64,000 nt of DNA, taken from IMG/VR virus record IMGVR_UViG_3300029258_002856. One strand, 5' to 3'. The translations under genes were made by a program, and so were the position numbers. This DNA comes from a virus. Shown here piece after piece: positions 53,060 through 60,708 of this stretch (position 1 is the stretch's first letter; every line of letters starts with the position of its first letter). Below the pieces are notes generated by a model. The model was not told where the DNA came from. It saw only the letters and a list, made by a program, of their open reading frames with translations, and ran no database searches.

Positions 53060-56000
53060 ATGCCCGAACTTACGCCCATTCTGGTGGACCCAGAGACCCG
53101 GCGCGACATGATTCGTGTCAAGGTCTTAGAGGGGTTGAAAGAGTCGTTTCCCCTCAAGGCCCGGAACCGCACTATCGAAGTCGATAACCTCGAAGTCGAT
53201 ACGAAAGAATTCTCATCGACAGACCAGAAGAATGCTCTCTTGCGGGGGGACTCCCTCTTCGAGCGCGTGAAAGGGACGGTTCGTCTCCGCGACAACAAGG
53301 GGAAGGTACTGAGCGAGGCATCGAACTTTACGCTAGCTCGCGTCCCATGGTTCACCCCACGCCACACCCTCATCGTAGGCGGCAACGAGTACTCCATTTC
53401 CAACATGGTGCGTCCGAAGCCCGGCGTGTACGCACGAAAGCGTGCCAATGGGATTCTGGAAGCGAACTTCAACGTCGTGGGCGGCGCGAACTTCAACGTG
53501 AGTATGGACCCCGAAAAGGGTGAACCGCAACTCGAGTACGGCGCGACGAAGGTACCCCTTTACCCCGTATTGCGGAGGGCCGGGGTCAGCCACGAGCGTA
53601 TCTCGAAAGCGTGGGGGAAGCAGCTGGCCGAAGCGAACTTCAAGAAGCTGTGGAAAAACTCGGGACGCACTATCGACAAGCTCTACGGGAAAGTCATTCC
53701 CGAGTACCGGCGCACTGCCGGTGCGGATACCGAGGCGAAGACGCGGGAAATATTTGCGCGTTACGCCGAAGCGAAGATGGACCCCGACGTCAACCGTCAG
53801 ACCCTCGGCAAGGGATACCGGGAAGTAACCCCCGACAGCCTGTTAGACGCCTCGGGGAAAGTCTTGCGCATCTTCAAGAACGCGGACGAGATTGACGACC
53901 GGGATAACCTGGACTTCAAGTCCTTCCACTCCGTCGATGATTTCTTCAAAGAGCGTATCAAACTGGACGCACGAGAGATTGCGCGGAAGGCAGCAATCAA
54001 GTCCGAGTCGACTCCGGACGTGAAGCGTATCATCCCCCCTGGTCCGTTTACATCTGGCCTCGTGAAGTTCATCAATAGCTCCCAGCTTGCGTCAGTTCCT
54101 ACGCAGACGAATCCCATGGAGCTCATTGACTCCGCGGTGCGCGTCACTTCCCTCGGGGAGGGTGGCATCTCGAGTGAGCGTGCGATTCCCATGGAAGCAC
54201 GACAGGTACATGTCACCCAGATGGGAGCGTTGGACCCTATACGCACTCCTGAGTCTTTCCGGGCCGGGATCGATGTCCGCGCCGCGATGATGGCAAAGCG
54301 CGATGCGCGTGGAAACATCTACGTGCCCGTGCTGGACGCGAAAACGCGCCGGGGTAAGTACATCCGCGCAGGGGATTTGCAACGCTCGGTCGTCGCTTTT
54401 CCGGGACAACAGTTGAGGGGACAAGTAGAAGCCCTTGATAACGGTGAAATCAAACGCCTTGCAGCGTCGCGGGTTCAGTACCAGATTCCACATGCTTCGG
54501 CACTCTATAGCCCCGCGACAAACCTGGTGCCGTTCCTCGAATCAGCACAAGGTAACCGGGCCATCATGGGTTCGAAGATGCAGGTTCAGGCCCTCTCTCT
54601 GGTGGGCCGAGAAGCTCCCATGGTCCAGGTCAAGTCGCAGACGGGGCCTACCTTCGAGCGCATCATGGGTGGGGTCATTAACCCAGTCTCCCCGGTGTCT
54701 GGGGTGGTCAAGAAAATCGACAAGGACTACATCTACGTCCAACCGGACGGCGAGAAGACCGGAGCCAAGGGCAACAAGTATGTAAAGATTCCGTATGAAA
54801 CCAACTTTCCTCTCGCAGCCAAAACGTACCTTGACCACAAACTTGGAGTACAGAAAGGTGACAAGGTTTCTGCGGGTCAGCGCTTGGGCGAGTCCAACTT
54901 CACGGATAACGGGGTCCTGGCGCTGGGCAAGAATCTGCGCGTAGGCTTCATGGCTTATGACGGGGCGAACTCCAACGATGCCGTAGTCGTCAGTGAGGGC
55001 GGCGCGAAAAAGCTCACGTCCGAGCGCATGTACAAAATCGTGGTCCCTCGAGACCCGGACTTGACATTCAGCCGGGACAAGCACCGCACTTACTATGGAC
55101 ACGGATATACCAAGGACCAATACAAGCCTATCGATAAAGAAGGCGTGATTGCGCCGGGTACGCAGATTAATCCAGGTGACCCCCTCGTCATGGGACTTCG
55201 CAAGACACAGCTCACCGCGGATGACGTACTTCTTGGACGGCTGCACAAGTCACTGGCGCGTCCGTTCCGTGAGAACGTACATGATTGGGACCATGACCAC
55301 CCTGGCGAAGTCGTGGACGTCGTGAAGACGCCCAAGCGAATCGCCATTACTGTCAAGACACGAGAACCTGCTGGCATCGGAGACAAGGTTGCTGGGCGCT
55401 ACGGCAATAAAGGGGTCATCTCGCAAATCGTTCCCGACGACCAGATGGTGCGAGACGAGAAGGATAGGCCTATCGACATCCTGATGACTCCCGCCGGGGT
55501 GGTATCTCGTATCAACCCGAGTCAGATTATCGAGACTGCCGTGGGGAAGGTCGCGGAGAAGACCGGAAAGCCGATTGCCGTAGAGAACTTCTCTGGGCGC
55601 AACAACGTTCAATGGGCCAAGGATTTACTCAAGAAACACGGACTCAAAGACAAGGAAACGGTGTACGACCCGCGTACCGGGCGCAAGATTCCCGGGGTGC
55701 TTGTTGGGCGGCAATATATCATGAAGCTCTTCAAGTCCACGGACACCAACTACTCAGCACGGGGCATCGAGAATTACGACGTAAACCAGCAACCAGCTAA
55801 GGGGGGTACTCAGAGCGCCAAGGTGCTGGGTCGTATGGAGTTCGACGCGCTCCTCTCCCATGGAGCACGGAACGTCTTACGAGAAGCCGCAACTCTGAAG
55901 AGCCAAAAGAATGACGAGTGGTGGCGCAACATGCAGCTCGGATACCCTACGCCACCTCCAAAGACCACTTTCGCTACTGACAAGTTCCTTACGATGCTTA

Positions 56001-58909: not shown

Positions 58910-60708
58910 TGGCTGAAGGTCAACCGTTCGGGCGCTGGCTCTTGAATACCCAGTTGCCTTCTGGGTTCAAGGTCAACTCCCCCGTGGGAAAGAAGCGCCT
59001 CAACCAAATGATGAATGACCTGGCGCGCAAGGACCCTACGCAATACACCACGACTATTGCAGGCCTTAAACGTCTAGGCGATGAGCTTGCGACGCAGGAA
59101 GGCCTCTCCATCGGGCTGGATGACATCGAGCCTGAATACCGGAAACGGGATGCGCAGATGCGTCCCTTCCGTCAGAAGTTTCAGGCGGCACGTACAACCG
59201 CACAGAAGCGCCAGATACTGGAGCAGCTCCACGGAAAAATTACTGATGCCGCCATGAAGCACCGCGGGAGTCTCACGCAGCAAGTACAGAGCGGTGCTCG
59301 CGGTTCTCCCACTCAGTACATGAAGATTGTCGGTAGCCCGGTATACGCTCGGGATGCCAATGGAAAAGTTACTCCTTGGCTCATCCCACGTTCCTACAGT
59401 GAAGGGTTATCGGCTGCTGACTACTGGGCTGCGGGCAACGAAGCTATCTCGGATACCATCAAGTCGAGCACTGCGGTGTCCGAGCCCGGAGAGCTGTCCA
59501 AGATTCTCATTAACAACATGAACGATATCGTGGTGACCGAACAGGATTGCGGAACGGTCAATGGTATCCTCATGGACCCCAAAAACCCCGATGTTCAAGA
59601 CCGTTATCTGGCTCGCAGTGAAGGGGGAGTGCGGAAAGACACCCTCATCAGTCCACAGGTGCAAGCCCGACTGGCCAAGAGCAAGAAGAAAATCCTGGTG
59701 CGTTCGCCGATGACTTGTGAGGCCGGTGATGGGGTCTGCCAGAAGTGCCAGGGTCTCAATGAGCGCGGGAACCTTCACACAGTAGGCACCAATGTTGGCA
59801 TCCGAGCAGCCCAGGCCATGGCGGAACCGCTCACCCAGTTCGCCCTCAATGCGAAGCATGGTGTTCGTACGGCCAAGAGCGACCGCTTGCAAGTTCACGG
59901 CATGCAGGGCTTTCGCCAGATGACAGAATCACCTCGGCAGTTCATGAACAAGGCGACCCTGGCAGGGGAAGAAGGGAAGGTCACGAAGATTGAGAAGGCC
60001 CCGCAAGGAGGACATTTCGTCTACGTCGGCAGCACCAAACATTACGTGACTCCCAACATCAACGTTGTGGCCAAGGTGGGACAGAAGGTCGAACGCGGAG
60101 ACGCGCTGAGCGGTGGGATACCCAAGCCAGATGAGGTGGTAGCCTTCAAAGGTTTGGGAGCTGGACGTCGATATATGGTCGATACGTTGAAGGAACTCTA
60201 CAAGAACCAAGGACGTAATCTCGACCAACGACACTTCGAGCTGTTGGCCAAAGGCGAACTCAATCACGTACGTATCGTGGATGACCCAGGTAGGAACTTC
60301 ATTCCCGGCGATATTGTAGATTACAATCACTTCCGTTCGATTTTACGGGGTAATACGAAGACTCTTCCATTGACGCAAGCGCGCGGGGAGACCCTCGGGA
60401 AAGAGCACCTCCACTTCTCCGCCGGGACTCGTGTGACTCCTTCGGTGGAGCGGGCACTCCACAAAGAGAAAATCAAGGATGTCATCATTGCACCCCGGGC
60501 TCCTGAGGTTGAGTTTGTGATGAAGCCCGCTACTAGAGCCCCGCTTCTTAACCCAGATTGGATGGCTCGTTTGGCGCACCGGAACCTGAAGACAACGCTT
60601 CAACAAGCTGCGCACTTTGGTGATGTTACGAATGTCCACGGAACAAATCCCATCCCGGCCTATGTTTTTGGCGTAGAATTTGGGCAGGGAGAAGAGGGAC
60701 GATACTGA
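58909..60708 (+). CDS. rpoC: RNA polymerase beta-prime C-terminal half
   Basis: GLSIGLDD, QSGARGS, SY.EGLS..DYW, bridge helix TAVSEPGELSKIL, DCGT, RSPMTC..GVCQKC.G, trigger loop VGIRAAQAMAEPLTQFALNAKH. Confidence 0.93.
   Translation: MAEGQPFGRWLLNTQLPSGFKVNSPVGKKRLNQMMNDLARKDPTQYTTTIAGLKRLGDELATQEGLSIGLDDIEPEYRKRDAQMRPFRQKFQAARTTAQKRQILEQLHGKITDAAMKHRGSLTQQVQSGARGSPTQYMKIVGSPVYARDANGKVTPWLIPRSYSEGLSAADYWAAGNEAISDTIKSSTAVSEPGELSKILINNMNDIVVTEQDCGTVNGILMDPKNPDVQDRYLARSEGGVRKDTLISPQVQARLAKSKKKILVRSPMTCEAGDGVCQKCQGLNERGNLHTVGTNVGIRAAQAMAEPLTQFALNAKHGVRTAKSDRLQVHGMQGFRQMTESPRQFMNKATLAGEEGKVTKIEKAPQGGHFVYVGSTKHYVTPNINVVAKVGQKVERGDALSGGIPKPDEVVAFKGLGAGRRYMVDTLKELYKNQGRNLDQRHFELLAKGELNHVRIVDDPGRNFIPGDIVDYNHFRSILRGNTKTLPLTQARGETLGKEHLHFSAGTRVTPSVERALHKEKIKDVIIAPRAPEVEFVMKPATRAPLLNPDWMARLAHRNLKTTLQQAAHFGDVTNVHGTNPIPAYVFGVEFGQGEEGRY

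Follow-up and report, generated by a model that had tools for sequence, protein, structure and literature searches.

A predicted two-chain RNA polymerase core of bacterial type, with beta fused to the N-terminal part of beta-prime, in a lineage of tailed phages

The stretch of DNA analyzed here (the window) comprises 64,000 nucleotides of the IMG/VR virus record IMGVR_UViG_3300029258_002856, whose whole genome measures 179,063 bp and is rated 100% complete. Alignments and structure models indicate that two polypeptides encoded in the window together form the catalytic core of an RNA polymerase (RNAP) of the bacterial, two-barrel type. Chain 1 is the 1450-amino-acid (aa) product of a fused gene (53060 to 57412) that joins a compact, complete beta (aa 1 to ~989) to the N-terminal part of beta-prime (aa ~990 to 1450, equivalent to Escherichia coli ~16 to 551). 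Chain 2 (58909 to 60708, 599 aa) carries the C-terminal part of beta-prime (Pfam Rpb1_5; E. coli beta-prime ~568 to 1366, without sequence insertion 3 [SI3]). All coordinates are those of the window and, unless a minus strand is indicated, refer to its + strand. The best overall explanation, which we hold to be probable, is a bacterial-type two-chain core that was cut once from an older single-chain lineage, has no alpha or omega, would work with the phage's own sigma factors, and is likely packaged.

Sequence and predicted structure of the two chains

Chain 1 matches the Pfam beta families Rpb2_3, Rpb2_6, and Rpb2_7 at aa 348 to 950 and the beta-prime N-terminal families Rpb1_1 and Rpb1_2 at aa 1122 to 1385. 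A phmmer search of the PDB likewise returned beta chains (E = 5.5e-71) and beta-prime chains (~1e-40) on successive parts of the sequence. An earlier note on this DNA had described one 1450-aa open reading frame (ORF) running from beta into beta-prime, and the presence of both sets of Pfam domains in a single ORF bears this out. Residue equivalences come from aligning the chains with RpoB and RpoC of Salmonella, whose numbering is that of E. coli. By that alignment, the junction between the beta C terminus and the beta-prime N terminus falls at 56015 to 56044, in agreement with the 56020 to 56040 proposed earlier. E. coli beta residues 1336 to 1342 aligned with chain 1 aa 986 to 992, and beta-prime residues ~4 to 17 of solved structures aligned, by structure, from aa 990 to 991, so there is no linker; beta-prime lacks its first ~15 residues. 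The junction is modeled by AlphaFold2 (AF2) as a beta-hairpin (model strands 286 to 291 and 294 to 299) in a block with a predicted local distance difference test (pLDDT) score of 83 to 91.

The earlier note had also suggested that the N-terminal part of beta is shortened. This is correct for ~23 N-terminal residues, which are gone; the remaining size difference is due to the absence of proteobacterial lineage-specific insertions, which the alignment places at E. coli 229 to 345, 390 to 412, 939 to 1049, and 1125 to 1178. The double-psi barrel motif of beta, GDK...GNKG, is found at aa 771 to 791 (55373 to 55432), is invariant in relatives, and includes the active-site lysines K776 and K784 (E. 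coli K1065 and K1073). A flap-tip region is kept at aa 711 to 738. In the beta-prime part, the N-terminal zinc-binding domain is deleted, as had been noticed: E. coli 64 to 95, with its four cysteines, is reduced to a few residues at 56165 to 56179, and the alignment shows the same deletion in the cultured Salmonella phage Arash and in the single-chain relatives described below. The clamp helices (coiled-coil), the canonical docking site of sigma region 2, occupy aa ~1152 to 1203 (56513 to 56668; E. coli 245 to 330; model helices 467 to 487 and 491 to 509), and chain 1 also bears the lid and rudder. The catalytic loop NADYDGD aligns at aa 1359 to 1365 (57134 to 57154), exactly where the earlier note had read it, and chain 1 stops 85 residues beyond it. 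D-Y-D-G-D is invariant in 14 close relatives; single-chain relatives have NADFDGD, GADFDGD, or NADNDGD, and the DxDGD motif permits a bulky residue at x (PMC7598289).

Chain 2 matched PDB beta-prime chains with an E value of 7.5e-42, with aa 13 corresponding to E. coli 580. The bridge helix region (aa 165 to 210; 59401 to 59538; model helices 169 to 189 and 193 to 204) and the trigger loop (aa 291 to 345; 59779 to 59943) were located by alignment, which confirms their earlier assignment to 58909 to 60708. The trigger loop lacks SI3 and keeps the catalytic histidine H317, and its tip (316 to 325) has low pLDDT, as expected of a mobile loop. Between the two features lies the second beta-prime zinc site, with C214, C270, C277, and C280 (59548 to 59751) equivalent to E. 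coli C814, C888, C895, and C898. These cysteines and H317 are invariant in a set of 48 sequences. Chain 2 has no counterpart of the last 40 residues of E. coli beta-prime.

Two AF2 models, built from 48- and 55-row alignments, gave pLDDT values of 83.3 for chain 2 and 82.8 for chain 1 aa 700 to 1450, respectively. Both superpose along their full length on bacterial beta-prime (Foldseek E values of 1e-27 to 1e-31). For chain 2, the Foldseek match to beta-prime chains (E ~1e-31) confirms the fold and carries no residue ranges. For chain 1, VIA alignment of model residues 291 to 751 with beta-prime chains gave Z scores of 21 to 24.

The features of a two-barrel core are thus all present: the beta barrel lysines, the DxDGD loop, a bridge helix of divergent sequence, and the trigger loop. 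The bridge helix speaks against an active core, as it is far from the bacterial consensus in the window and does not keep GARKG; this motif is lost in the window's clade and partly kept by single-chain relatives. The proteins could on this account be catalytically dead relics, retained in the capsid for structure or for DNA binding, a notion to which the loss of the zinc-binding domain and of the omega-binding C terminus also lends itself. We regard it as very improbable, given that every residue with an established need in catalysis (the two beta lysines, the three aspartates, and the trigger-loop histidine) is invariant among relatives at 35 to 70% identity, as are the second-site zinc cysteines. 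The rifampicin pocket is not conserved. Most contact residues are substituted in the equivalent of cluster I (aa 337 to 369; 54068 to 54166), with Q513S, D516T, H526S, and S531T in E. coli numbering, as are V146S, I572D, and R687V elsewhere, and the enzyme is therefore predicted to be rifampicin insensitive.

The fusion and the split might reflect faulty assembly, which the earlier note had raised as a worry for the fusion, or a sequencing frameshift, but no observation favored this. An identical contig of ~96.7 kb was found in 3 public runs, one per run, with zero differences over 55700 to 59200. Small identical contigs occur in assemblies of a fourth study, one of them bridging the stop and start codons at 57410 to 57413. 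The record may derive from some of these public runs, so the comparative argument is the stronger one: the beta/beta-prime junction lies inside a single ORF in all 80 fetched IMG/VR loci, in Arash, and in Vibrio phage D69 (82/82), and the fused protein of Arash (gp206) was covered by peptides over 100% of its length (PMC10585845). Together, the contig, locus, and peptide data refute the artifact reading, to which we give next to no probability. A second related phage is present in the same metagenomes (public runs X1 to X3 and X5) as contigs of 29 to 33 kb; its match to the window covers the 41 bases at 57413 to 57453, where there are three differences, and the sequences diverge to either side. 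The polymerase lineage is therefore represented by at least two phages in those metagenomes.

The earlier note had seen no alpha subunit in the window, and this holds for the complete genome. Pfam searches for alpha (PF01000 and PF01193) and omega (PF01192) gave no match with an E value of ≤1 in all 179,063 bp, and they recovered these subunits in 14/14 control genomes, though a very divergent substitute could be missed by such searches, which is a point against an alpha-free enzyme. The phage enzyme may use host alpha. There is a single polymerase gene set in the genome. To our knowledge, all cellular RNAPs need an alpha-type platform to join the two catalytic subunits, and the hitherto known exceptions are the enzymes of phiKZ and AR9, in which sigma has been lost too. 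We postulate that in the enzyme described here the covalent link between beta and beta-prime probably replaces the alpha-dimer assembly platform.

Single-chain relatives and the position of the split

We scanned 1.84 billion cluster representatives (50% identity clusters) with chain 1 aa 700 to 1450, and all of the best 150 representatives span the beta/beta-prime junction. An alignment-based search of IMG/VR identified 199 loci, compared with one locus when a single protein (P0003) served as the query, and the neighborhoods of 80 of the 199 were fetched and examined. Among 382 related proteins, 278 end where chain 1 ends and 61, from more distantly related phages, are complete single-chain beta::beta-prime fusions, encoded in a single ORF in IMG/VR loci such as L080 and L083. 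The single-chain forms are ~2,040 aa long, or 2,000 to 2,900 aa overall, with or without inteins. In these proteins, the homolog of chain 2 residue 8 comes ~7 residues past the end of the chain 1 homology, a continuity which indicates that the two genes of the window represent a clean cut of one continuous protein.

The direction of change was examined with two trees of the junction region, made with FastTree (149 rows) and IQ-TREE (LG+C20; 56 rows) and rooted with concatenated beta C-terminal and beta-prime N-terminal sequences of Salmonella, Acinetobacter, and Staphylococcus. In both trees, the single-chain forms make up a basal, paraphyletic grade, and a single clade nested within it gathers every two-chain form (the window, Arash, and D69 among them); the character needs only 2 changes of state. 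Because the split clade is nested within single-chain forms, we read the two-chain architecture as derived, through secondary gene fission, and the single chain as the older form. Several observations weigh against this polarity. The root rests on only three bacterial outgroup sequences; Shimodaira-Hasegawa-like support for deep branches is 83 to 96, and the split clade itself received 85 in IQ-TREE. A single-chain protein with an intein (P0289) also nests inside the split clade, which implies that fission either happened twice or happened once and was followed by a re-fusion.

In the same trees, a long stem with full support (0.63 to 0.87 substitutions per site on each side) lies between the phage lineage and the bacterial outgroups. 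The earlier note had supposed a distinct phage RNAP lineage and had suggested a phylogeny as a check. Run here against three bacterial taxa, the phylogeny recovers a separate phage lineage, in keeping with the best 150 clusters being fused throughout, and it shows the two-chain form as derived and not as the basic state of that lineage. If a phage had instead taken rpoB-rpoC (or rpoBC) from its bacterial host fairly recently and trimmed the genes since, this would explain the strong similarity to bacterial beta (E = 5.5e-71), the presence of Firmicutes and cyanobacteria among the best beta matches, and the retention of sigma-binding elements. Such a capture is improbable in view of the stem length, measured against three bacterial taxa, of the >150 clusters at 50% identity that are all fused and all without the zinc-binding domain, and of a synteny with the portal gene that is conserved throughout the lineage.

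We also recorded several related findings. In many relatives, one to three inteins (LAGLIDADG or Hint domains) interrupt the fused gene, which then encodes 1,800 to 2,900 aa (for example, P0004, P0006, P0060, and P0289, and loci L013 and L019 to L022); the window's copy is intein free. One short protein (P0242) was considered as an RpoC1-like form and rejected, since it is an incomplete copy of a normal beta-prime from short contigs, and most of the shorter homologs considered as unfused forms proved to be fragments at contig ends. Ordinary bacterial rplJL-rpoBC operons occur in GenBank "phage" records (Enterococcus phage Efs 1-1-1, Staphylococcus phage SA 1306 Kay, Listeria phage LM 4-11-1, and Acinetobacter phage MD-2021a contigs), where they are probably host contamination of the assemblies.

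Chain 1 ends at E. coli beta-prime ~551, and homology in chain 2 is anchored at E. coli 580 (aa 13). The intervening E. coli segment 556 to 571 is a loop that is reduced to a few residues in the whole phage lineage. A single-chain gene would have been cut once, in the window's sublineage, in a short surface loop 85 residues past the catalytic DxDGD. In the window's nearest relatives, the place of the cut is taken by a LigD-like end-processing gene.

The earlier note had placed the split close to that between RpoC1 and RpoC2 of cyanobacteria and plastids. The two are near each other and are not the same. A VIA structural alignment (Z = 21.6; 450 residues aligned) puts the end of chain 1 (model residue 751) at residue 558 of RpoC1 from Synechococcus 7942, of which 617 residues are present in the solved model, so the phage cut lies ~65 residues upstream of the cyanobacterial one. 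The cut site corresponds to ~1471 to 1478 in the single-chain protein P0290, inside its Rpb1_3 domain (1412 to 1544). In cyanobacteria and plastids, the break in beta-prime likewise follows the catalytic barrel and lies in a surface loop (PMC10120043 for the cyanobacterial split), but the cyanobacterial cut comes after Rpb1_3 and beta is separate, whereas the phage cut is inside Rpb1_3 and beta is fused. The beta-prime N part also finds some of its best structural matches in RpoC1 (gamma) chains, with target-normalized template modeling scores (TM-scores) of 0.54 to 0.56; in PDB sequence searches made to place the cyanobacterial split, no cyanobacterial chain was among the matches listed.

Comparison with other RNA polymerases

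The same two-chain architecture is found in Salmonella phage Arash (gp206, 1525 aa, and gp216, 606 aa; OQ632216; PMC10585845), to which the window's proteins align over their full length at 36% identity, and in Vibrio phages D69, D148, and D181. The window shares all traits of the Arash-type polymerase, namely, the linkerless junction, an end ~85 aa past DxDGD, and a beta-prime C gene downstream on the same strand. As in the window, Arash and the D-type Vibrio phages have a portal gene upstream and two sigma genes, and they belong to the same split clade. In D148 and D181, a free-standing homing endonuclease splits the polymerase gene. The Arash paper calls the two proteins beta and beta-prime, reports both chains from virion mass spectrometry, and does not mention a fusion (PMC10585845). 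Single-chain phage proteins (for example, those of loci L080 and L083, and P0290 and P0291) share the junction, the loss of the zinc domain, and the portal-linked position with the window. They differ in that beta-prime is uninterrupted, the catalytic loop is NADFDGD or a variant, and they branch below the two-chain clade.

Compared to the bacterial core (alpha2-beta-beta'-omega), the phage enzyme is without encoded alpha and omega and without the N-terminal zinc-binding domain of beta-prime. Full beta::beta-prime fusions (RpoBC) occur in Helicobacter and Wolbachia, where the C terminus of beta is likewise joined to the N terminus of beta-prime. These cellular fusions are full size (~2,850 aa), with beta-prime intact and with alpha and omega retained. 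The window enzyme, unlike them, is compact, has the rest of beta-prime in a separate gene 1.5 kb downstream, and has no alpha or omega.

The polymerases of phiKZ and AR9 are also phage encoded and free of alpha and omega, and virions of these phages carry one of the two enzymes (PMC7598289, PMC7824862). They have beta in two to three pieces, two paralogous enzyme sets, no encoded sigma, and sequences far more divergent from bacterial ones; the window has a single set, in which an unbroken beta is joined to beta-prime N, along with two sigma genes. The earlier statement that phiKZ-like phages split the enzyme differently is therefore right for beta but may not extend to beta-prime, which according to a review is also cut just after the catalytic barrel in phiKZ (PMC7598289). 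The mReC phages, like the source of the window, are uncultured tailed phages with a compact, bacterial-like beta and beta-prime. Their gene architecture differs, as the published tables list beta-prime (~1000 aa) and beta (~900 aa) separately (Weinheimer and Aylward 2020, PMC7481178). When metagenome identifiers of relatives were compared with the mReC supplements, 4 of 6 were absent (4 of the 5 that hold the window's nearest relatives). The two that occur there, one only for a separate-gene mReC contig, gave no contig matched by name.

The earlier note had left room for the identical architecture being already catalogued. It does exist in public records, as GenBank holds Arash, D69, D148, and D181. 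In Arash, the two proteins are labeled simply "beta" and "beta-prime," with no discussion of a fusion. In the literature on phage multisubunit RNAPs, we found no paper describing the beta::beta-prime N fusion as such; reviews of jumbo-phage polymerases describe no fused, sigma-paired form (PMC7598289, PMC7824862); and full-length polymerase matches in PHROGs fall only in families of "unknown function." New here are the single-chain relatives of ~2,040 aa, the nested and derived two-chain clade, and the position of the fission relative to RpoC1/RpoC2.

Neighboring genes, sigma factors, and probable virion packaging

Between the two polymerase genes, at the fission site, lies a gene (57413 to 58909) for a 498-aa LigD-type primase-polymerase with a 3'-phosphoesterase and no ligase domain (PF21686, 5.8e-16; PF13298, 9.6e-8). 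It is coupled translationally to both neighbors, by TAG-ATG upstream and by a TAATG overlap downstream. Almost all near-clade loci (≥~59% identity) with sufficient flank have a full-length copy at this site, and copies covering most of the protein are also found in the distant loci L018, L023, L046, L075, and L082. Only a phosphoesterase-like fragment lies near the polymerase genes in L027, L033, L040, L045, L065, and L080, in the last of these downstream of the single fused gene. Some other distant loci have unrelated small genes at the fission site, and there is no LigD-like gene between the polymerase genes in Arash (nine small genes) or D69 (two). Across loci, the two genes are separated by between 10 bp and 5.7 kb. 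We speculate that the fission site later became a landing pad for accessory genes and that the LigD-like end-repair enzyme may travel with the polymerase.

The operon closes with a 182-aa ORF (60708 to 61256) that overlaps the stop codon of the gene for beta-prime C, and a terminator-like hairpin (61243 to 61260) comes next. Homologs lie directly after beta-prime C in 25 near-clade loci. The protein, which has no match in Pfam or PHROG, could be an accessory polymerase subunit. A scan for sigma-70-type promoters over 50000 to 64000 returned 3 sites, compared with 5.3 in shuffled sequence, so the site at 53006 to 53035 carries no weight.

Upstream of the polymerase is the portal protein gene (50554 to 52290; 29% identity, E = 2e-88, to Arash portal gp204). 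A portal gene directly precedes the polymerase gene in 81 loci, single-chain loci included. Just upstream of both is a gene for an SNF2-family helicase (48398 to 50494, minus strand), and Arash has two helicase genes in the matching position. A Swi2/Snf2 helicase has been linked to phiKZ-type polymerase genes, with a RapA-like role suggested (Iyer et al., PMC7824862).

Two sigma-family proteins are encoded in the window. The small one (7829 to 8539, 236 aa) is 40% identical to Arash gp10 and matches Pfam Sigma70_r3 (6.8e-6) and a PHROG sigma family (2.6e-7). Its gene is clustered with that for a 1072-aa protein bearing a lytic transglycosylase domain, typical of ejection proteins. The larger one (43276 to 44319, 347 aa) has sigma-70 regions 1.2, 2, and 4 and is syntenic with Arash gp196; a zinc-ribbon-like insert of ~60 residues (aa 44 to 104; weak Pfam DZR match) lies between its regions 1.2 and 2.

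Complex prediction for the small sigma with beta-prime N gave a score of 0.74, whereas the best of 3 controls scored 0.00. Of 80 solved complexes, 58 attained this value, as did 2 of 110 mismatched pairs. The runs shared at least 48% of contacts, with a partner pLDDT of at least 70, and the predicted interface pairs the clamp helices (chain 1 aa ~1152 to 1203) with sigma residues 47 to 65 and 95 to 106. Since sigma and the clamp helices are a textbook pair (the sigma region 2 interface), the high score may stem from resemblance to holoenzymes of known structure; the prediction nonetheless supports binding of the small sigma to the clamp helices. The features of a sigma-dependent holoenzyme are present, with clamp helices, a flap, and two encoded sigma-family genes, and promoters would most likely be recognized by the phage's own sigma-family proteins.

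Evidence on packaging comes from purified Arash particles, in which gp206 gave 3516 spectra, the most of any protein and more than the major capsid protein, gp216 gave 1210, and the small sigma gp10 gave 467 (PMC10585845). This abundance of both chains and the small sigma, together with the position of the polymerase gene directly behind the portal gene, suggests late synthesis and packaging. By analogy with Arash, we lean toward the view that the polymerase is packaged in virions. Two points in the Arash paper tell against this view, as the authors warn that abundant intracellular enzymes may contaminate particle preparations and they list ribonucleotide reductases as "structural" (PMC10585845).

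The polymerase could instead be purely intracellular and serve middle or late genes, its abundance in Arash particles being carry-over. The Arash paper itself raises this concern, other metabolic enzymes are among its 88 "structural" proteins (PMC10585845), and with one polymerase set in the genome the same enzyme must serve intracellular transcription anyway. We consider a purely intracellular role unlikely, though it deserves more weight than the other alternatives discussed here, in view of the rank of gp206 above all other Arash proteins, the major capsid protein included, the portal-adjacent position in 81 loci across the lineage, and the clustering of the small sigma gene with that of the ejection-type transglycosylase protein. 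A packaged, injected holoenzyme thus appears likely: polymerase and small sigma would be made late, packaged, and injected, and early genes would be transcribed without the host polymerase.

These elements combine into a fuller proposal, which we put forward tentatively and would stop short of calling probable. A large, globally distributed group of ~180-kb tailed phages may package and inject a minimal sigma-dependent holoenzyme made of two chains (one in older relatives) and the small sigma, without alpha or omega. In it, the link between beta and beta-prime would take the place of the alpha platform, and the fission site would serve as a landing pad for accessory genes. It would be a third kind of virion RNAP beside the single-subunit enzyme of N4 and the multi-piece enzyme of phiKZ, and the only one to retain promoter recognition of the bacterial sigma type.

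The lineage is very large: it fills >150 clusters at the 50% identity level, and one collection contains 199 of its viral contigs. Because it has cultured members on Salmonella and Vibrio, direct bench testing is possible. The enzyme would offer a compact holoenzyme of bacterial type for structural and synthetic-biology work, and the natural series of single-chain and two-chain forms could be used to learn where a polymerase tolerates cuts. The lineage would represent a second, simpler alpha-free solution, in which the subunits are tied in one chain and sigma is kept while alpha, omega, and the zinc-binding domain are dropped, and it is a likely explanation for early transcription independent of the host enzyme in these phages.

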